A stretch of 24,000 nt of DNA from an uncultured Planctomycetaceae bacterium (GCA_964392945.1 CAYMSH010000027.1:1-24000); one strand, 5' to 3'; positions 253 through 7,545 are shown, counted from the first letter of the stretch. Translations and numbers: made by a program. Notes: generated from the sequence alone by a model not told the origin.

Positions 253-807
253 TCAATCTTCAGGGAACTGAAGATACTCGGGGCCAACGCAGTCGGTAAG
301 CCACACTCCGTTAGTCGACAGGAAGAACTCCGCGCCGGCGGCCGCCAGGTCAGCGGCGCGGACCTTGAGTACAATCGGTCTACCGTATCGCCGTCCGACA
401 CTCTCGGCCGTCTCGGCGTCAGGCGACAGGTGTACGTGATGGCGCTGGCGTTTGACCAGGCCCTGGGCTTTGATCGCCTTGATATTCCCCGCGGCCGTCC
501 CGTGATAGAGAATCTCCGGCGGATCGGCGGCGCTGTAGCCTAAGTCCACGTTGATCGAGTGGCCCTGGCTGGCGCGGATCATTGCGCCGTCGGCGCTGAA
601 TTCGAACCGCTTCTTGTCGTTCGTAGCGACTACCTCTTGGAGCTGCTCGAAGCTCATGGCCCGCCCGACTTCTCGGCATCCGCGCAGCAAGACATCGACG
701 CGAACCCAACCGGAATGGTCAGGTTCAACGTCGATAGTCTCGGGCCGATGCCGGAGCACCAGCGAGAGGAACTTGCTGATGCGCGTTTTCTTTTTCTCGT
801 TCATCAT
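253..807 (-). CDS. kptA: RNA 2'-phosphotransferase (Tpt1/KptA family)
   Basis: 184-aa ORF that aligns by eye along its full length with E. coli KptA. Matching segments: SKFLSLVLRHRPE (Arg-His), DKKRFEF, IRASQGHS, LYHGT, RHHVHLS, NGVWLT. Same strand as rtcB and 34 nt downstream of it. Confidence 0.9.
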   Translation of the reverse strand: MMNEKKKTRISKFLSLVLRHRPETIDVEPDHSGWVRVDVLLRGCREVGRAMSFEQLQEVVATNDKKRFEFSADGAMIRASQGHSINVDLGYSAADPPEILYHGTAAGNIKAIKAQGLVKRQRHHVHLSPDAETAESVGRRYGRPIVLKVRAADLAAAGAEFFLSTNGVWLTDCVGPEYLQFPED

Positions 808-841: not shown

Positions 842-2245
842 TCAATCTTCGGGGCGCTGGCCGCCGGGCGCCATCTTCACCAGCCGCGGATCGAATCTGC
901 CGATCGGATCGACAAGATCGCGCTGCGCCCGCATGACCTCTTCGATATCCTTGTACGCCATCGGCGCTTCGTCCAGGCCGGCGGAGATCAGCTCCACGCG
1001 ATTGGCCTTGAGGAACTTCTTCACGTCCGACCAGGTGAACATCTCCTTGGCCTTCTTGCGGCTCATTCGTCGCCCGGCTCCGTGGGACGCCGAGTTCAGC
1101 GATTCGGCGCAGCCCTTTCCGCGCACAACGTAACACGGGGTGGCCATCGAACCGGGAATAAGCCCCAGCACGCCTTTTTCGGCCGGCGTAGCGCCCTTGC
1201 GGTGCACGATGACCTCACGCCCGTCGTGGATCTCTTTCCACGCGAAGTTGTGATGGTTCTCGATATCCGCCAGGACCTTGGCCCCGATGTTCCGCACGAC
1301 GTAGCGGTGAATCAGTTCGTGGTTCGCCGCGGCGTATCGGCCCATCAGCTCCATGGCGGCCCAGTATTCCTTACCGGGTTCGCTGTCGAGATCGAACCAC
1401 GCCAGGTGCAGCAAGTCGCGAGGCAGTTCGGGGTGCAGCTCCATCGCAAGTTTGCTGTAGTGCTGTGCGATCATTCCGCCGACGCCGCGCGAGCCGCTGT
1501 GGCTCAGCAGAGTCAGGTACTGACCGGCGGGCAGTCCCAGTTCGTCGGCTTCAAGCGTAAGCACGCCGAATTCCGCGAAGTGGTTCCCGCTTCCGCTGGA
1601 GGCCAGCTGGCGCCAGGCCTTGTCCTTGTGCTTGAGCGTGATCGGCGAGACGGTCCAGTCTTCGTCCATCACATCGTGCTCGCGTCGATGCCGCGAGCGG
1701 AATCCGCCGCCGACTCCGAAACACGTCTCGCGATTCAGTGCGCCTTTCAGGCGATCGGTTTGTCCTTCGATCGCCGAGGCCGGCATGTCCAGCACGCTCA
1801 TTTTCATGCGGCATGCAATGTCCATTCCAACTGCGAACGGGATAACGGCGTTGTCAGTGGCCAGCACTCCGCCGATCGGCAAACCGTAGCCCATGTGCGC
1901 GTCCGGCATGAGCGCGCCGCATACGGCGACCGGCAGACGGCTGGCCGATTCGAGCTGCCCAATCGCGTTGTCGTCCAGATCGCGGCCCCACTGTCGCCAG
2001 GGCGCTGGCTCTGCGCGCGGCTCGAACGTCTTGCGCGCCGCTACTCTTTCGATAAGCGCCGAGGCCAGCTCGCCCCAGATCGCATCTTCGGTGTGATCTT
2101 CGGGACAGTCGACTAGATCGCCGATGATCTGGCGCATCTGCTGCTTGTGCACACCGGCCTTTGCGGCGCGAGCTACGGTCTTCTGGGCCAGTTTCATCAC
2201 CGGCCCCTTGGGGATTCCAAGATTGCTTAGTTCTCTTGCTTTCAT
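842..2245 (-). CDS. rtcB: RNA-splicing/repair ligase RtcB (3'-phosphate/5'-hydroxyl ligase)
   Basis: 467-aa ORF with RtcB hallmark segments GMDIACRM, SGSGNHFAEF, SHSGSRGVG, ENHHNFAW, SASHGAGR. Its ATG lies 2 nt after the rtcA stop. Confidence 0.95.
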   Translation of the reverse strand: MKARELSNLGIPKGPVMKLAQKTVARAAKAGVHKQQMRQIIGDLVDCPEDHTEDAIWGELASALIERVAARKTFEPRAEPAPWRQWGRDLDDNAIGQLESASRLPVAVCGALMPDAHMGYGLPIGGVLATDNAVIPFAVGMDIACRMKMSVLDMPASAIEGQTDRLKGALNRETCFGVGGGFRSRHRREHDVMDEDWTVSPITLKHKDKAWRQLASSGSGNHFAEFGVLTLEADELGLPAGQYLTLLSHSGSRGVGGMIAQHYSKLAMELHPELPRDLLHLAWFDLDSEPGKEYWAAMELMGRYAAANHELIHRYVVRNIGAKVLADIENHHNFAWKEIHDGREVIVHRKGATPAEKGVLGLIPGSMATPCYVVRGKGCAESLNSASHGAGRRMSRKKAKEMFTWSDVKKFLKANRVELISAGLDEAPMAYKDIEEVMRAQRDLVDPIGRFDPRLVKMAPGGQRPED

Positions 2246-2247
2246 AA

Positions 2248-3282
2248 TTATGCGTCCTTCTTCATATCCGGTTCGACCCGGACTTGGCAGGCCTTCGGCC
2301 CGATTTTCTCGGTAGTAATCTCAACGTCCAGAAACTGCTTGATCAGGTCAATGTTTGTTTTCGCGTGGCGAGTAAGCCCTGTAGTGACGAATCGCCCGCC
2401 GGCCAGAGCCATAGGCACGAGCAGTTGATCGGCCAGGTACGGACCGATCGGAACCTGTGCTGCTAGGTACTTCTGGGCCTGCTGGACCGCGTGGTTGGCG
2501 ACGGCTTTTGCAGGCACGTTGACCTGGCCGAAACCGGTGAACAGTTCAGTAACGTTCTCCGACTCGATCTCCAGCAGCACGACGTTGCCCGGCCCGGCCG
2601 AGTCCCTGCGAACATCAACGTGCAGTTCGTCATCCGACCAGCCGAGCTTTGACTGCACCTTCCGCAACTCCTTGCGTGCGATCTCTTCAGGCAGTCTTGC
2701 GATCATCGCCACGGCCCGCCTCGCTACGGTCCGGCCGCGTTCGATAATCTCCAGCCGTTTGAGTTTTGAGACCGGCTCGATCGTCACGAGGAACTCGCCT
2801 CCGCCGGCGGGGTAGAAACCCGGCCGGATGAGCGTAACGGAAATCTCGGGGCCCATGCGATTAAGAAGCGGAATCAGCGCCTTGGCGAGGAAATCCACCG
2901 GCGGAGCCCAGGGGTTGTGCGTTCCGCCTTGAAGAGTAATCTGCGACGGCTCGTCGGCGGTCATCAGCGCAGGCAGCACGGTCTGCAAGACCAGCGTCGC
3001 GCTGCCGGCGGTGCCCACGGCGAACCGGTAACACCCGCCGCGCACCTGGCCCGGCTCGAACGTAAGGGCCCCGGACCGCATCTCTGCGCCCTGGGCGTTT
3101 CCGCTGCATACTTCCAGCGCGGCTTTCACCGCGGTAAGGTGCTGGCGGAGCAGACCGGGCTTCTTCCGCCCGGCGCGTATGTTCTCTATTCGGAGCGGTT
3201 TTTCCGTCTCCATCGACAACGCGAGCGAAGACCGCAGGATCTGCCCGCCGCCTTCTCCATATGATCCGTCAATCGTCAACAT
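2248..3282 (-). CDS. rtcA: RNA 3'-terminal phosphate cyclase RtcA
   Basis: 344 aa from the ATG at 3282 (MLTIDGSYGEGGGQILRSSLALS...). AAAGGA Shine-Dalgarno about 9 nt upstream. Also GGTHNPWAPP, ADQLLVPMALAG and C-terminal LTRHAKTNIDLIKQFL (His in the position expected for the adenylylated residue). The ORF-track start at 3474 reads through a tRNA-like RNA and is rejected. Confidence 0.93.
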   Translation of the reverse strand: MLTIDGSYGEGGGQILRSSLALSMETEKPLRIENIRAGRKKPGLLRQHLTAVKAALEVCSGNAQGAEMRSGALTFEPGQVRGGCYRFAVGTAGSATLVLQTVLPALMTADEPSQITLQGGTHNPWAPPVDFLAKALIPLLNRMGPEISVTLIRPGFYPAGGGEFLVTIEPVSKLKRLEIIERGRTVARRAVAMIARLPEEIARKELRKVQSKLGWSDDELHVDVRRDSAGPGNVVLLEIESENVTELFTGFGQVNVPAKAVANHAVQQAQKYLAAQVPIGPYLADQLLVPMALAGGRFVTTGLTRHAKTNIDLIKQFLDVEITTEKIGPKACQVRVEPDMKKDA

Positions 3283-3313
3283 GAGTCTCAATCCTTTCGC
3301 CCGGTCTGGGCTC

Positions 3314-3340
3314 GGGGCCCGGGCCGATCGCCCGGGCCCC
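3314..3340 (-). other. Perfect 11-bp all-GC hairpin between the Y RNA array and the rtcA ribosome-binding site
   Basis: Minus strand: GGGGCCCGGGC GATCG GCCCGGGCCCC. No U-tract follows. The rtcA SD is about 17 nt downstream. Confidence 0.6.
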
Positions 3341-3371
3341 ATCGTACCGCCTGCTCGACATTTGTACATCC

Positions 3372-3399
3372 AATAAAAGACCCGCGGCGACAAGGGTCT
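3372..3399 (-). terminator. Candidate intrinsic terminator ending the Y RNA array
   Basis: Minus strand: AGACCC (3399-3394), loop TTGTCGCCGC, GGGTCT (3383-3378), then TTTATT (3377-3372). The stem is only 6 bp. Its loop contains the 3' basal strand of module Y-4, so the two folds may compete. Confidence 0.4.
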
Positions 3400-3507
3400 G
3401 GAGAAACATTTCCGGTGCTCTACCAATTGAGCTATTGCGAACATGCTCGCAAGCGGGACTCGAACCCGCAGCATCCGGCCAAATGTAGTTACTCCGGCAT
3501 TCGCCGC
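3384..3507 (-). ncRNA. Y RNA-like module Y-4 (permuted tRNA mimic, YrlA type)
   Basis: Minus strand 5'>3': GCGGCGA(3507-3501) ATGCC GGAG TAACT ACATTT GG CCGG ATGCT [GCGGG TTCGAGT CCCGC 3469-3453] [TTGCGA GCATGT TCGCAA] TA [GCTC AATTGGTA GAGC] A CCGG AAATGT TT CTCC AGACCCTTG TCGCCGC(3390-3384). The order is T arm, loop-closed acceptor helix, complete D arm. The enclosing stem takes the place of the anticodon stem. Ends are approximate. Confidence 0.75.
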
Positions 3508-3551
3508 CGGCCAAATGCCGACGCCCGGTTCTCACCGGACGCCGACGCCTA

Positions 3552-3697
3552 TGCGTTACGACAAGTTATGACGAAACGTTTTGCGCGCTCTACCGCTGAG
3601 CTACAGCCCCAATAGATTCGTTAAATGGAGCCGGCGGGATTCGAACCCGCGACCTCGGGTACCTTAACCTTGTAGTTCCGTCCGCATTCGTGACGCA
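3552..3697 (-). ncRNA. Y RNA-like module Y-3 (permuted tRNA mimic)
   Basis: Minus strand: TGCGTCACGA(3697-3688) ATGCGGA CGGAAC TACAAGGTTAAGGTACCCG AGGTC [GCGGG TTCGAAT CCCGC 3650-3634] [CGGCTCC, 16-nt loop, GGGGCTG; 7 bp including 2 G-U] TA [GCTC AGCGGTA GAGC] G CGCAAAAC GTTTCG TCATAACTTG TCGTAACGCA(3561-3552). The basal helix is 10 bp with one mismatch. CGGAAC/GTTTCG forms a second helix. Confidence 0.65.
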
Positions 3698-3708
3698 GTT
3701 TTTTCGCC

Positions 3709-3844
3709 CCGGTCGGCGACAAACGTTGGCCAGACAGTCTTACTGAGCTATCTCGACGCTAATCGAGAGCGAGATCTGAACTCGCGACCTCCCGCACGAG
3801 GCGGGCGCTCTAACCATGTAGTCTGGGCGGCATTCGCCGACCGG
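3709..3844 (-). ncRNA. Y RNA-like module Y-2 (tRNA mimic opened in the D-loop)
   Basis: Minus strand: CCGGTCGGCGA(3844-3834) ATGCCGC CCAGAC TAC ATGGTTA GAGC G [CCCGC CTCGT GCGGG] AGGTC [GCGAG TTCAGAT CTCGC 3785-3769] [TCTCGA TTAGCG TCGAGA] TA GCTC A GTA AGACT GTCTGG CCAACGTTTG TCGCCGACCGG(3719-3709). The basal helix is a perfect 11 bp. CCAGAC/GTCTGG and GAGC/GCTC also pair. Confidence 0.7.
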
Positions 3845-3864
3845 TATGCATTTAGTTTTCAAAA

Positions 3865-3950
3865 TGGCGACAAGTGGTGGCGTGAGATTCCGCTTTCGCG
3901 ACCGGGATTCGAACCCGGATTACCGATGTACTCACGCCGGCATTCGCCAA
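3865..3950 (-). ncRNA. Y RNA-like module Y-1 (minimal: T-arm mimic plus GNRA mini-helix)
   Basis: Minus strand: TTGGCGA(3950-3944) ATGCC GGCGTGAG(3938-3931) TACATCGGTAAT [CCGGG TTCGAAT CCCGG 3918-3902] T [CGC GAAA GCG 3900-3891] GAAT CTCACGCC(3886-3879) ACCACTTG TCGCCA(3870-3865). It has an 8-bp helix plus a 6-bp basal helix and no D arm. Confidence 0.65.
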
Positions 3951-4137
3951 TTGCATTCGTCTGGGACCGACATTCGCCGGTCAACGGCGATTGGGACCTT
4001 TCGACCGCAACCGCCGGTTAAGTAAGCCGCCCCCCCGCGCGGCCTACAGTTTGATGTTCTTTGATCAGATCGGGAGACCCGGATAGAATCGGCGCTTCAA
4101 TTCAGCTTGGTTTTTCGCCGTCTGGCCTGCTCTCGAC

Positions 4138-5715
4138 CTACAATTTTACATCTTCAATCTGACCGACCCAGTAGCCCGCCTGCGACCGACCCGCGGCCAC
4201 GTCTGCGATCAGGCCGAACACCTTGTCGCTGAAACCAGCAACGTTGATGATGTCATCACGCTCTGCAGCCTGGGTGGTGTCGTAAGGCTGGATGTCGATG
4301 CAGACCATCTTCGCCTGCGGATTACGCCGCTTGAACACGGCCCATTCCTTCATAGTCGCAGTGGCGCTTCCGCCGCATCGGCCGTAGTACGGCGAGTCAA
4401 CCCACGATTCGTTGTCCGAAACGTAGATCACCAGATCGCCCCGGGCCTTGCGAGCGTTCAAGTGTCGCAGCGGCGCGGCGCAGTTCGTTCCGCCCTGGGG
4501 CAGATTCGCCAGCTTCCGGGCGTTAGTCATCACCGAAGCTCGTGGTTTCAGGGCGACTTTCACGATCTTGGACTCGAACGGAACCACCTGAGTCAGGCGA
4601 TTGGTCCGCAGCATGGCCGCAGCCACGAGAGCCGCAACGTCGATGCATCGCACGACGGTGGTCGAACCCTTTCGGTATCCGGTTACCGGCGAGTGCATCG
4701 ACCCCGAAACGTCCGGGAGCACATAAACCTCGCCGTCAACCACAGGCACGTTCCGCAGCGAGATCTCCAGCGCGTCCTGCAGAGCCCCGCGGATCGCCGT
4801 CGGCAGATCGCTTGAGGCGCACATGTAGGCGGTCATCAACTGGTACGGCAGGACACGAGCCTTTGCGATAAGCTCCGGATCGGCCAGCCGCTCTGCGATC
4901 AGACGAACCATCTTCGGATCGTCCAGCACGCCGTGACGCAGGAAGGTGTTCAGGTTCATTCGAGTCATCTGCCACGAAGCGTTCTCGGCGATGCCCACCC
5001 AATGACGCTTGCCCAGCTCCAGACCGGTCAGCATCTGGAAGGGAACGTCCGGGGCGTCGATCGCAGCGCGATCGTCAGAGCACTTGAACCGATCGTAAGC
5101 ACGCACTACCTCGGGCAGCGCTTCTGCGTTGTGGTCCCGACCCAGCAGGTAACCGTACAGGCTTTCCCGCGAGGCGCTCCCCGGCTTGGGGTGAACCATC
5201 TTGATCACGTCGGCCAGCGACGGAGACGAACCAACCGAACCGGTGAATATTTGTCGATCGGTCCGGTTCGAAAGCCACTGCAGGATCAACCGCTTGGGCA
5301 ACGAGCCGAGGCTCTTTCGACCCACCACGCCGCTTCGCATGATCTGCACAAAGTTCCGCAGCATCTTCGGGTTGTCGATCACTCGATCGAAAACCTCGGC
5401 CAGCAATCCCGGACTGCGAACCGACAGAACGGCGCACAGCAGCGCGGGGGTGTCCTTCATGTACGCGCGCTTTCGGGCATACAACGCCATTCGAGCGACG
5501 AACTCCGGCTCGACTCTACCAGCCAGCTCCAGCACCTGGTCCAACTGCCCCTGGGCCGAAGCGTAGAACGTGGAGTTCAGGCAGCCAGTGGCGGCCAGTT
5601 GCGCCAGTGCGTGGCGATCGTCAAGCCTGTAGGCCTGTCCGCCAGCCTCGTTGACAGCGTTGGTCTTGGGCAACAGCTTGCCGACTATCGATTGAAATAA
5701 AGTCTTGTTAGCCAT
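4138..5715 (-). CDS. rsr: Ro 60 kDa autoantigen ortholog Rsr (TROVE domain + vWA domain)
   Basis: N-terminus typical of Ro/TROVE proteins (MANKTLFQS...NEAGGQAY...FYASAQGQL...YARKRAYMKDTPALL). C-terminal vWA domain with MIDAS motif DVSGSM. Start set at ATG 5715; the ORF track offers an alternative 8 codons upstream at 5739. Confidence 0.92.
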   Translation of the reverse strand: MANKTLFQSIVGKLLPKTNAVNEAGGQAYRLDDRHALAQLAATGCLNSTFYASAQGQLDQVLELAGRVEPEFVARMALYARKRAYMKDTPALLCAVLSVRSPGLLAEVFDRVIDNPKMLRNFVQIMRSGVVGRKSLGSLPKRLILQWLSNRTDRQIFTGSVGSSPSLADVIKMVHPKPGSASRESLYGYLLGRDHNAEALPEVVRAYDRFKCSDDRAAIDAPDVPFQMLTGLELGKRHWVGIAENASWQMTRMNLNTFLRHGVLDDPKMVRLIAERLADPELIAKARVLPYQLMTAYMCASSDLPTAIRGALQDALEISLRNVPVVDGEVYVLPDVSGSMHSPVTGYRKGSTTVVRCIDVAALVAAAMLRTNRLTQVVPFESKIVKVALKPRASVMTNARKLANLPQGGTNCAAPLRHLNARKARGDLVIYVSDNESWVDSPYYGRCGGSATATMKEWAVFKRRNPQAKMVCIDIQPYDTTQAAERDDIINVAGFSDKVFGLIADVAAGRSQAGYWVGQIEDVKL

Positions 5716-5788
5716 CTCGCACCATCCTTTCAAGGCCAAGTTCCAGCCCCTGCTGGAAATAACTCATTCATGCCTTGCCCTCCTATTA

Positions 5789-5805
5789 GCAGCAAGCGTG
5801 CCAAA
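5789..5805 (-). promoter_or_regulatory. sigma54 (-24/-12) promoter for rsr, the Y RNAs, rtcA, rtcB and kptA
   Basis: Minus strand: TTTGGCACGCTTGCTGC. TGGCACG matches the -24 element exactly. CTGC stands in for TTGC at -12, and the GG-to-GC spacing is canonical. It lies about 75 nt upstream of the rsr ATG and faces the divergent sigma54 activator gene rtcR. Confidence 0.6.
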
Positions 5806-5937
5806 CTTGCTGAATAAAAATGTAATAATCGTAAATCGTTGTCTATACGTCTTTTGCGCATGCCCTCGTCAATTACCGTCCACTGGCGACGACAAACAAT
5901 GTTTTATCTTATGGGATAAGTGCCTATCTTTATGGCT

Positions 5938-7545
5938 ATGCCTAAAGGAAACACAGTTGTATTTGGTCTGCTTGGAACCATGCTGGACTCCGGTCCGGCC
6001 CGGAATCGCTGGGACAAGTGGCGCCCAACGGTTTCGATCTTCCAGCACGAGGAGTTGCTCGTCGATCGCCTCGTGCTGCTTCACGACAAGAAGCGCGACG
6101 GTCTTGCGATCCAGGTCTGCGATGACATCTCCTCGATCTCTCCGGAGACCGAGGTCTGCAGGCACATTCTGGACTTCGACGACCCGTGGGATTTCGAGGA
6201 GGTCTACGGGGCGCTGCACGATTTTCTGCTGGGCTATGCGTTCGATCCGGAAGAGGAGGAGTACCTGCTGCACATCACGACAGGCACGCACGTGGCCCAG
6301 ATTTGCATGTTCCTGTTGACCGAGTCGAACTACTTTCCGGGCAAGCTGCTTCAGACCAATCCGTTCGGCAAGAACCGGCGCGGCCCGGGCGGGTACACGA
6401 TCATCGACCTGGACCTGTCGAGATACGATCGGATCGCCCAGCGATTTCAAGCCGAGCGTTGCGACGACCTGTCGTTCCTCAAGTCGGGCATCGAGACTCG
6501 CAACAAGCGGTTCAATCTCCTGATCGAACAGATCGAGCAAGTCGCGATCCGCAGCGACGCCCCGCTGCTGCTTACCGGCGCTACCGGAGCCGGCAAGTCG
6601 CGCCTGGCCCGCCGGGTCTACGAACTTAAGAAAGCTCGCAGACAGGTTTCGGGTGAGTTCGTCGAGGTCAACTGCGCGACGCTTCGCGGAGATGCGGCGA
6701 TGTCGGCGATGTTCGGACACGTAAAAGGCGCATTCACCGGCGCGTTGCGGGACCGCCCGGGTCTGCTGCGTGCGGCCGACGGAGGAACCCTGCTGCTGGA
6801 CGAAGTCGGCGAACTCGGACTTGACGAGCAGGCGATGCTGCTGCGGGCCGTCGAGGAGGGCCTCTTCCTGCCGGTAGGCACCGACAAGGAGACCGCCAGT
6901 TCATTCCAGCTTATCTGCGGGACAAACAAGGATCTCAAGCAGGCCGTCGCCGACGGCGCTTTCCGCGAGGACCTGCTGGCCAGGATCAATCTCTGGACAT
7001 TCCACCTGCCGGATCTGGCCCAGCGGCCTGAAGACATCGAACCGAATCTCGACTACGAACTGAGCCAGCTGGCCGAAACCACCGGCACGCGAATAACGTT
7101 CAACAAGGAGGCCCGGCGGAGTTTCCTGCGGTTCGCCACTTCCCCCGAAGGGCTGTGGCTGGGAAATTTCCGGGACCTGAACGGAGCCGTGGTGCGCATG
7201 GCGACGCTCGCGACGGCCGGCAGGGTCACAGTCGATATAGTCGCCGGCGAGATCCAGCGGCTCAAGGATTCCTGGCTTCGCAGCGCCGAGGCCTGCGATC
7301 GCGACGCCAGGCCGATCGAACTGCTGGGCTCGGAAACCGTGTCGAAGATGGATCGTTTCGATCGCGTTCAACTCTCGGACGTTCTGGAAGTGTGCGACAA
7401 GTGCAAGTCGCTCTCGGATGCGGGGCGCGCGCTGTTCGCCGAGTCACGCAAAGCAAAGCAGAACCCCAACGACGCCGATCGCCTGCGGAAGTACCTCGGA
7501 CGCTTCGGTTTGACATGGCGAAAGATCCGCGAATCGAGCGATTAA
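5938..7545 (+). CDS. rtcR: sigma54-dependent transcriptional activator RtcR (CARF-like sensor + AAA+ + HTH)
   Basis: N-terminus MPKGNTVVFGLLGT...RWDKWRPT resembles the RtcR CARF region. Walker A GATGAGKS (6577-6600), GAFTGA (6727-6744), C-terminal HTH-like segment. Start is uncertain: ATG 5938 preferred, ATG 5932 and GTG 5920 are alternatives. Confidence 0.92.
   Translation: MPKGNTVVFGLLGTMLDSGPARNRWDKWRPTVSIFQHEELLVDRLVLLHDKKRDGLAIQVCDDISSISPETEVCRHILDFDDPWDFEEVYGALHDFLLGYAFDPEEEEYLLHITTGTHVAQICMFLLTESNYFPGKLLQTNPFGKNRRGPGGYTIIDLDLSRYDRIAQRFQAERCDDLSFLKSGIETRNKRFNLLIEQIEQVAIRSDAPLLLTGATGAGKSRLARRVYELKKARRQVSGEFVEVNCATLRGDAAMSAMFGHVKGAFTGALRDRPGLLRAADGGTLLLDEVGELGLDEQAMLLRAVEEGLFLPVGTDKETASSFQLICGTNKDLKQAVADGAFREDLLARINLWTFHLPDLAQRPEDIEPNLDYELSQLAETTGTRITFNKEARRSFLRFATSPEGLWLGNFRDLNGAVVRMATLATAGRVTVDIVAGEIQRLKDSWLRSAEACDRDARPIELLGSETVSKMDRFDRVQLSDVLEVCDKCKSLSDAGRALFAESRKAKQNPNDADRLRKYLGRFGLTWRKIRESSD

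Follow-up and report, generated by a model that had tools for sequence, protein, structure and literature searches.

Four structurally distinct predicted Y RNAs in the rsr-rtcA spacer of an RNA-repair locus from an uncultured Planctomycetaceae bacterium

The rsr-rtcA locus

A 24,000-nucleotide (nt) stretch of DNA from an uncultured Planctomycetaceae bacterium (GCA_964392945.1, CAYMSH010000027.1:1-24000), referred to as the window, contains an RNA-repair locus with the gene order rtcR (divergent), sigma-54 promoter, rsr (the Ro60 orthologue), four Y RNA-like modules, rtcA, rtcB, and kptA. An initial annotation had placed four circularly permuted, tRNA-like RNAs of the YrlA type in an 855-nt spacer between rsr and rtcA. 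The spacer does measure 855 nt (4137-3283), provided that rtcA begins at ATG 3282, and very probably encodes four distinct bacterial Y RNAs of ~90 to 143 nt each, with ends predicted to pair as a Ro60-binding stem. The modules lie on the minus strand, 188 to 757 nt downstream of the rsr stop codon, and are predicted as follows:

3861-3950, minus strand: Y RNA M1, with a T arm as its only tRNA-type arm; the minimum-energy fold agrees
3710-3840, minus strand: Y RNA M2, split-D class
3552-3694, minus strand: Y RNA M3, a full YrlA with a hairpin in the variable region and an acceptor resembling that of tRNA-Ala
3381-3507, minus strand: Y RNA M4, a compact canonical YrlA; the minimum-energy fold matches

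Identification of the modules as Y RNAs

Bacterial Y RNAs are recognized by a GNCGAAN0-1G motif located <4 kb from rsr and on the same strand (PMC4201824). Every module is enclosed by a conserved Ro60-binding stem with GNCGAAUG as the 5' strand and CUUGUCGNC as the 3' strand, and all four lie within the 4-kb, same-strand range used by Chen et al. (2014). The 5' strand reads GGCGAAUG in M1, M2, and M4 and CACGAAUG in M3, where the partner strand carries a matching change.

The Rfam YrlA covariance model (RF02553; curated cutoff, 69 bits), applied permissively to positions 3200 to 4250 (1-kb search), aligned end to end with all four modules (model positions 1 to 114), bearing out the YrlA-type identity first proposed. 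M4 passed the cutoff with 72.2 bits (E = 2e-16 in the 1-kb search and 4.5e-15 over the whole window) and was the sole match above any curated Rfam cutoff in the 24 kb. M3 (59.3 bits, E = 1e-12), M1 (44.4 bits, E = 2.2e-8), and M2 (28.2 bits, E = 1.1e-3) scored below it in the 1-kb search. The modules had been described as looking unannotated and likely to escape tRNA scanners and ORF callers; only three of the four are truly hidden, as M4 would be caught at the curated Rfam cutoff. A covariance model made from the four modules (R1) and run unfiltered over the window found only these modules, at 73 to 122 bits (M1, 73.4; M2, 97.8; M3, 119.9; M4, 121.6), with the next best match at 10 bits.

No tRNA or transfer-messenger RNA (tmRNA) was found in the window by ARAGORN, and the Rfam tRNA model also gave no match there. 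As tRNA genes, all four modules fail: the anticodon-like loop of M2 has 5 nt rather than 7, and M1, M3, and M4 have no such loop.

Architecture of the modules

All four T arms, and the closed acceptor-like helix 3' of each, were recovered from the minus-strand sequence exactly where they had been placed. In YrlA the order is T arm, acceptor stem, D arm (Chen et al., PMC4201824). This order, with a closed acceptor-like stem-loop and an intact D arm, occurs in M3 and M4 but not in M1, which lacks the D arm, or M2, in which it is split. The description of four circularly permuted tRNAs thus fits M3 and M4 only, since M1 consists of a T arm and a mini-hairpin and M2 is opened in the D loop, unlike classical YrlA. 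Similarly, TA plus D-arm sequence had been assigned to three modules and was found in M3 (GCTCAGCGGTAGAGC) and M4 (GCTCAATTGGTAGAGC), whereas M2 has only TAGCTCAG at 3750-3743. The parts of M4 and M3 are as follows:

3505-3498 with 3394-3386, minus strand: M4 Ro60-binding stem, GGCGAAUG paired with CUUGUCGCC
3469-3453, minus strand: M4 T arm, GCGGG-TTCGAGT-CCCGC
3452-3435, minus strand: M4 acceptor-like hairpin, TTGCGA-GCATGT-TCGCAA, 6 base pairs (bp)
3434-3433, minus strand: M4 UA
3432-3417, minus strand: M4 D arm, GCTCAATTGGTAGAGC, with Levitt pair A15:U48
3692-3685 with 3565-3557, minus strand: M3 Ro60-binding stem, CACGAAUG paired with CUUGUCGUA
3650-3634, minus strand: M3 T arm, GCGGG-TTCGAAT-CCCGC
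3633-3604, minus strand: M3 acceptor hairpin, CGGCTCC-16 nt-GGGGCTG
3633-3627, minus strand: M3 acceptor 3' strand, CGGCUCC, followed by an A73-like A (3626) and a 15-nt loop (3625-3611)
3610-3604, minus strand: M3 acceptor 5' strand, GGGGCUG, giving G3·U70
3603-3602, minus strand: M3 UA
3601-3587, minus strand: M3 D arm, GCTCAGCGGTAGAGC, with Levitt pair G15:C48

The M3 acceptor is shared by 29 Y RNAs at 24 loci of the comparison set described below, with loops of 5 to 62 nt; pairs 1 to 4 are conserved, whereas pairs 6 and 7 show compensated variation. The identity elements of the tRNA-Ala acceptor are G3·U70, A73, G2-C71, and G4-C69. The M3 class, whose acceptor is closed by a large loop, appears to keep this set (G1-C72, G2-C71, G3·U70, G4-C69, A73). 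By analogy with Mycobacterium smegmatis YrlA, the class could be opened by RNase P, CCA-tailed, and recognized or even charged by alanyl-tRNA synthetase, but this is unlikely. If true, a Ro60 particle carrying M3 would possess a tRNA-Ala-like end open to charging.

The tRNA-Ala-like acceptor also explains weak tmRNA matches: the T arm and acceptor of M3 scored 28.9 bits with the Rfam tmRNA_permuted model (cutoff, 47). M3 was rejected as a tmRNA given this score, the absence of a tag reading frame, and the lack of an ARAGORN tmRNA call.

In M1 the D arm is absent altogether, and the head consists of the T arm and a mini-hairpin:

3948-3941 with 3874-3866, minus strand: M1 Ro60-binding stem, GGCGAAUG paired with CUUGUCGCC
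3938-3931 with 3886-3879, minus strand: M1 second stem, GGCGUGAG paired with CUCACGCC
3918-3902, minus strand: M1 T arm, CCGGG-TTCGAAT-CCCGG
3900-3891, minus strand: M1 mini acceptor-like hairpin, CGC-GAAA-GCG

A MAFFT alignment of the M1 class (n = 17) had 93% of cells paired and two-sided changes in 14 of 22 pairs. When the spacer is compared across its four copies, taken from independent metagenomes, a single difference is seen: 3883 A>C in L082, which would break a U-A pair in the second stem of M1. As the three near-identical metagenome contigs differ by one single-nucleotide polymorphism, they carry no covariation information.

None of the four cloverleaf arms is missing from M2, where the Ro60-binding stem interrupts the D loop:

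3838-3831 with 3722-3714, minus strand: M2 Ro60-binding stem, GGCGAAUG paired with UUGUCGCCG
3815-3807, minus strand: M2 D loop and D-stem 3' strand, GGUUAGAGC, followed by G
3805-3791, minus strand: M2 anticodon-like hairpin, 5 bp with a 5-nt loop
3790-3786, minus strand: M2 variable loop, AGGUC
3785-3769, minus strand: M2 T arm, GCGAG-TTCAGAT-CTCGC, T loop UUCAGAU
3768-3751, minus strand: M2 closed acceptor-like hairpin, TCTCGA-TTAGCG-TCGAGA, 7 bp with a tetraloop
3750-3743, minus strand: M2 UAGCUCAG, comprising U8, A9, the D-stem 5' strand, A14, and G15

The D stem is split between GAGC (3810-3807), upstream of the T arm, and GCTC (3748-3745), downstream of it, and no second GAGC follows UAGCUCAG. 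The same parse applies to ten M2-type sequences from five phylum-level groups, and the class has 11 to 13 members from Planctomycetota, Verrucomicrobiota, Acidobacteriota, and Proteobacteria. In MAFFT alignments of the class, 96.2% and 93.5% of cells were paired, with covariation in five of five pairs of the anticodon-like arm and in most pairs of the acceptor-like and closing stems. The split D helix (GAGC/GCUC) is nearly invariant; the one double change, A-U to C-G, is shared by two near-identical sequences from Rhodobacteraceae. RNAalifold, given no structure as input, recovered the M2 architecture, including the split D helix. A class model (R2) scored M2 at 110.9 bits and separated 11 members (87 to 126 bits) from all other Y RNAs (≤66 bits).

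No earlier description of the M2 layout or of the Ala-like acceptor was found in the limited literature examined. It is proposed tentatively, at odds slightly below even, that M2-type RNAs represent a third Y RNA topology that is real and has not been described before. This layout is expected of an intermediate if Y RNAs arose from dimeric tRNA transcripts, as a published model holds (cited in bioRxiv 10.1101/312249).

Y RNA arrays in related rsr loci

The comparison set comprised 80 loci retrieved with the Rsr protein of the window. The best match was 71% identical, from Planctomycetales metagenome-assembled genomes, and other loci came from Acidobacteriota, Verrucomicrobiota, Myxococcota, Rhodobacteraceae, and other groups. 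R1 gave 244 further matches in these loci, all on the rsr strand and nearly all within ~2.5 kb downstream of rsr; the opposite strand of the 916 kb served as a built-in control and gave zero matches. At least one Y RNA was found in 76 of the 80 loci, with 1 to 9 copies per locus and a median of 3. An array of four is thus typical rather than exceptional, as 28 of the 80 loci have at least four. Of the eleven closest loci, six yielded only one or two copies each at the curated Rfam cutoff, and five yielded none. The commonest synteny is rtcR, rsr, Y RNAs, rtcB, rtcA; rtcA comes first in a few loci, as it does in the window.

Covariation across these loci is strong in the helices and extends to the tertiary 15:48 pair. 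In an alignment of the best 150 R1 matches, fitted to the R1 model, 92.9% of cells were paired, compared with 71% in shuffled and 36 to 62% in slid controls, and two-sided changes occurred in 982 cells, compared with 241 after shuffling. The Ro60-binding stem covaries and is 98% paired in these 150 sequences. Among 110 full-type Y RNAs, the Levitt pair 15:48 was G:C in 84, A:U in 25, and A:C in 1, so that 109 of 110 were Levitt compatible versus 70.8 expected under independence (Fisher test without phylogenetic correction). Helix covariation in homologous spacers, which had been put forward as a check on the array, was present in the model-fitted and MAFFT alignments and in an independent RNAalifold consensus.

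Relatives differ in what accompanies their Y RNAs. Their arrays often begin with a ~65-nt plain-hairpin Y RNA, of which the window has none. The longest arrays are in Rhodobacteraceae (L073, L075, L076, L078, L079, and L080), with six to nine Y RNA-like modules per ~1.3 kb, some having divergent D arms, e.g., GGCG…ACGC. The locus with the closest Rsr relative (L001:6488-7575) has eight tRNA genes interleaved with its Y RNA array, all for CNN codons (Gln-CTG, Gln-TTG, Arg-CCG, Arg-ACG, His-GTG, Pro-CGG, Leu-CAG, and Leu-GAG; anticodon position 36 = G), and in a second locus tRNA-Leu(GAG) immediately precedes the YrlAs (L002:8892-8975). These tRNAs might be spares against an anticodon nuclease; none of this type are present in the window. 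Rfam "tRNA" matches of 144 to 172 nt at L010:8230-8373 and L008:7926-8097, without an ARAGORN call, span by their coordinates two neighboring Y RNAs with Ala-like acceptors, taking the 5' acceptor strand and D arm from the first and the T arm and 3' acceptor strand from the next. Such bridging is the mirror image of the dimeric-tRNA artifact.

Operon and flanking genes

The protein-coding genes and promoter of the locus are as follows:

5920-7545, plus strand: rtcR, divergent sigma-54 enhancer-binding activator (Pfam RtcR, 7.5e-80; Sigma54_activat, 4.7e-47)
5788-5804, minus strand: sigma-54-type promoter, TTGGCACGCTTGCTGCT, upstream of rsr and facing rtcR (pattern search)
4138-5715, minus strand: rsr, Ro60 orthologue (Pfam vWA_Ro60, 1.5e-16; TROVE, 4.8e-7)
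2248-3282, minus strand: rtcA, RNA 3'-phosphate cyclase (Pfam RTC, 1.7e-79, residues 8 to 323 of a 344-amino-acid [aa] product)
842-2245, minus strand: rtcB, RNA ligase (Pfam RtcB, 2e-85)
253-807, minus strand: kptA/Tpt1, RNA 2'-phosphotransferase, the last gene of the operon (Pfam PTS_2-RNA, 4.4e-48)

The promoter sequence TTGGCACGCTTGCTGCT is one base off the consensus TGGCAC-N5-TTGC (-24 GG/-12 GC). Between rtcR and this promoter (5925-5895, minus strand), the motif CATAAGATA occurs twice as a direct repeat (ccataaagataggcacttatcccataagataaaac), which might be an RtcR binding site. The start of rsr is likely ATG 5715 rather than the TTG 5739 given by the open reading frame (ORF) lister; relatives align from residue 9, and the protein is called as 525 aa on identical contigs. 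An exact database look-up of the 525-aa Rsr returned no record; RtcB gave a match instead.

A start of rtcA at ATG 3474 would add 64 codons by translating through M4. This start had been rejected at the outset, and ATG 3282 is preferred because the RTC domain runs from residue 8 of the 344-aa product and gene callers report the 344-aa rtcA on two of three identical metagenome contigs, leaving the spacer empty. The RtcB of the window shares 28 to 36% identity with RtcB of most related rsr loci (56% in L069) and therefore belongs to a different RtcB subfamily. kptA/Tpt1 follows rtcB in the window and is found among relatives only with the Rhodobacteraceae arrays.

Neither a sigma-70 promoter nor an intrinsic terminator was detected by a consensus scan of the minus strand of the spacer, and a single polycistronic transcript across rsr, the Y RNAs, and the rtc genes is the simplest reading. 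Other elements were noted in the spacer. The 44-nt gap between M3 and M4 contains a 13-bp hairpin (3549-3517, minus strand; -28 kcal/mol, z score = -4.2) that lies outside both Y RNAs and might serve in processing or stability. Between M4 and the start of rtcA is an 11-bp all-G/C hairpin, GGGGCCCGGGC-GAUCG-GCCCGGGCCCC (3340-3314, minus strand), that lacks a U tract. Directly upstream of M1 (3979-3953, minus strand) are two orphan Ro60-binding 5' motifs resembling GNCGAAUG, namely CGGCGAAUGUCGG and GACGAAUGC, without a 3' CUUGUCG partner; these may be what is left of a lost module, for example the plain-hairpin Y RNA seen in relatives. No fifth module or YrlB-like plain hairpin was found upstream of M1 (4137-3951), where the best R1 score was 6.7 bits and folding gave unrelated hairpins.

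Proposed function and alternative explanations

By comparison with Salmonella, Mycobacterium, and Deinococcus, the four Y RNAs would be cotranscribed with rsr and the repair genes from the RtcR/sigma-54 promoter once RtcR senses damaged tRNA. As in other bacteria, they would then be cut out of the polycistronic transcript, and the Rsr ring would bind each through its closing stem. The differing tRNA-like heads may act as adaptors that tether or gate Rsr to different tRNA-recognizing partners, e.g., PNPase, RtcB, or tRNA-processing enzymes, in RNA repair or decay.

Several observations count against an array of four functional Y RNAs. M3, M1, and M2 lie below the curated Rfam YrlA threshold, although they are significant relatives. 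Single-sequence folding is nonsignificant for M3 (z = -0.01) and modest for M2 (z = -1.95) and M4 (z = -1.54), with M1 at z = -2.65; this weak thermodynamic signal is why comparative evidence was relied on. Fitting the alignment of the best 150 matches to R1 inflates its pairing counts, and these were therefore repeated on the plain MAFFT single-class alignments given above. Finally, the T loop of M2 has G in place of tRNA A58, and its second stem contains one C·C mismatch, so that M2 could be decaying.

The last point leads to the alternative that only part of the array is functional, with M2, and perhaps M1, being decaying duplicates carried in the transcript. The low Rfam YrlA scores of these two modules (28 and 44 bits), the deviant T loop (UUCAGAU) and stem mismatch of M2, and the lack of a D arm in M1 are consistent with it. 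However, the M1 (17 members) and M2 (11 to 13 members) classes are conserved, with compensatory changes across phyla, and decay would not keep helices in this way, which makes this explanation quite improbable.

The structured spacer might instead work chiefly in cis, affecting processing, stability, or attenuation so as to set the level of rtcA and rtcB relative to rsr, and not serve to yield trans-acting RNAs. The lack of a detected internal promoter or terminator and the extra stable hairpins in the M3-M4 gap and directly upstream of rtcA would suit such a role. The conserved parts, however, are the Ro60-binding stem and nucleotides of tRNA tertiary contacts, which are not tied to a downstream gene; the gene after an array can be rtcB, rtcA, or kptA, or there is none, a few loci have the array upstream of rsr, and homologous RNAs are stable and Rsr bound in three tested bacteria (PMC4201824). 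A mainly cis-acting spacer is accordingly very improbable.

Almost no credence is given to the modules being remnants of a tandem tRNA array, whether tRNA pseudogenes or a dimeric-tRNA artifact of the covariance model: dimeric tRNAs can mimic the T-then-D order (PMC4201824), real tRNAs are interleaved with Y RNAs in close relatives, and Rfam tRNA matches bridge Y RNAs in L008 and L010, but ARAGORN and the Rfam tRNA model were empty in the window, both Ro60-binding strands bracket each module, and the acceptor helices are loop closed.

Four Y RNAs within one repair operon therefore remain the preferred explanation. Going beyond it, the array could be a set of specialized adaptors, two of which (the M2 and M3 classes) would be new in kind.

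Implications for annotation and Y RNA diversity

With standard pipelines (Rfam at curated cutoffs, tRNA finders, and ORF callers), only one of the four RNAs would be annotated, and rtcA might be given 64 extra codons that run through a Y RNA gene. Tandem arrays of one to nine structurally distinct Y RNAs are the normal state in a widespread rsr clade, and Y RNA diversity is therefore undercounted. The conserved classes offer handles on what the tRNA-like heads of Ro60-bound RNAs recognize in RNA-repair operons, the most useful being the D-loop-opened cloverleaf (M2) and the acceptor with tRNA-Ala identity (M3). This subclass structure is the part that deserves specialist attention.

Comparison with known systems

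In the Salmonella rsr-yrlBA-rtcBA operon, tRNA-like YrlA RNAs are encoded beside rsr (Chen et al. 2014, PMC4201824; Wang et al. 2018, bioRxiv 10.1101/312249). YrlA is L-shaped (bioRxiv 10.1101/312249), the operon is controlled by RtcR with tRNA fragments as inducer (PMC7790460), and bacterial Y RNAs bind Rsr and are processed from a polycistronic transcript (PMC4201824). The window order of rtcR, rsr, Y RNAs, and rtc genes corresponds to that of known operons, in keeping with the rsr-adjacent YrlA context recognized in the initial annotation. M3 and M4 share with Salmonella YrlA the GNCGAAUG closing stem, the order of T arm, closed acceptor stem, and D arm, the T and D sequences, and the Levitt pair. 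The Y RNAs likewise lie directly downstream of rsr, on the same strand, in an RtcR/sigma-54 operon with rtcA and rtcB. The window differs in its order (rsr, Y RNAs, rtcA, rtcB, kptA) and in having four RNAs rather than two.

M3 departs from Rfam YrlA in its 7-bp Ala-like acceptor, 16-nt loop, and score below the cutoff. The Mycobacterium smegmatis YrlA has a 7-bp acceptor stem and is cleaved by RNase P and acquires CCA (PMC4201824); M3 is like it, by description rather than by sequence, in that its 7-bp acceptor helix ends in a large single-stranded loop. In arm content, M1 resembles the YrlB-type Y RNAs of Salmonella and M. smegmatis, with a Ro60-binding stem, a T arm (only possible in YrlB), and no D arm; the absence from the window of the relatives' ~65-nt plain hairpin is a difference to be set beside this likeness.

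Yrn1 of Deinococcus radiodurans has D-like, anticodon-like, and T arms in tRNA order, its Ro60-binding stem occupying the place of the acceptor (PMC4201824). M2 resembles Yrn1 in having an anticodon-like hairpin 5' of the T arm. Unlike Yrn1, it has a closed acceptor hairpin, a Ro60-binding stem that enters via the D loop and splits the D stem, and a closing-stem sequence of the YrlA type. Classification of M2 as Yrn1-like was rejected, since the acceptor hairpin closed 3' of the T arm and the interruption of the D loop by the Ro60-binding stem depart from the published Yrn1 topology; M2 thus fits neither the YrlA nor the Yrn1 order.

The modules also recall two-piece tmRNA and permuted tRNA genes of algae and archaea, in which the T arm and 3' acceptor strand precede a loop and the 5' acceptor strand, and the M3 acceptor is like that of tRNA-Ala or tmRNA. 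Unlike these, they lack a tag reading frame and an anticodon loop, and their RNA ends form the Ro60-binding stem. Overall, the array adds a well-populated example to a known system and does not constitute a new one.

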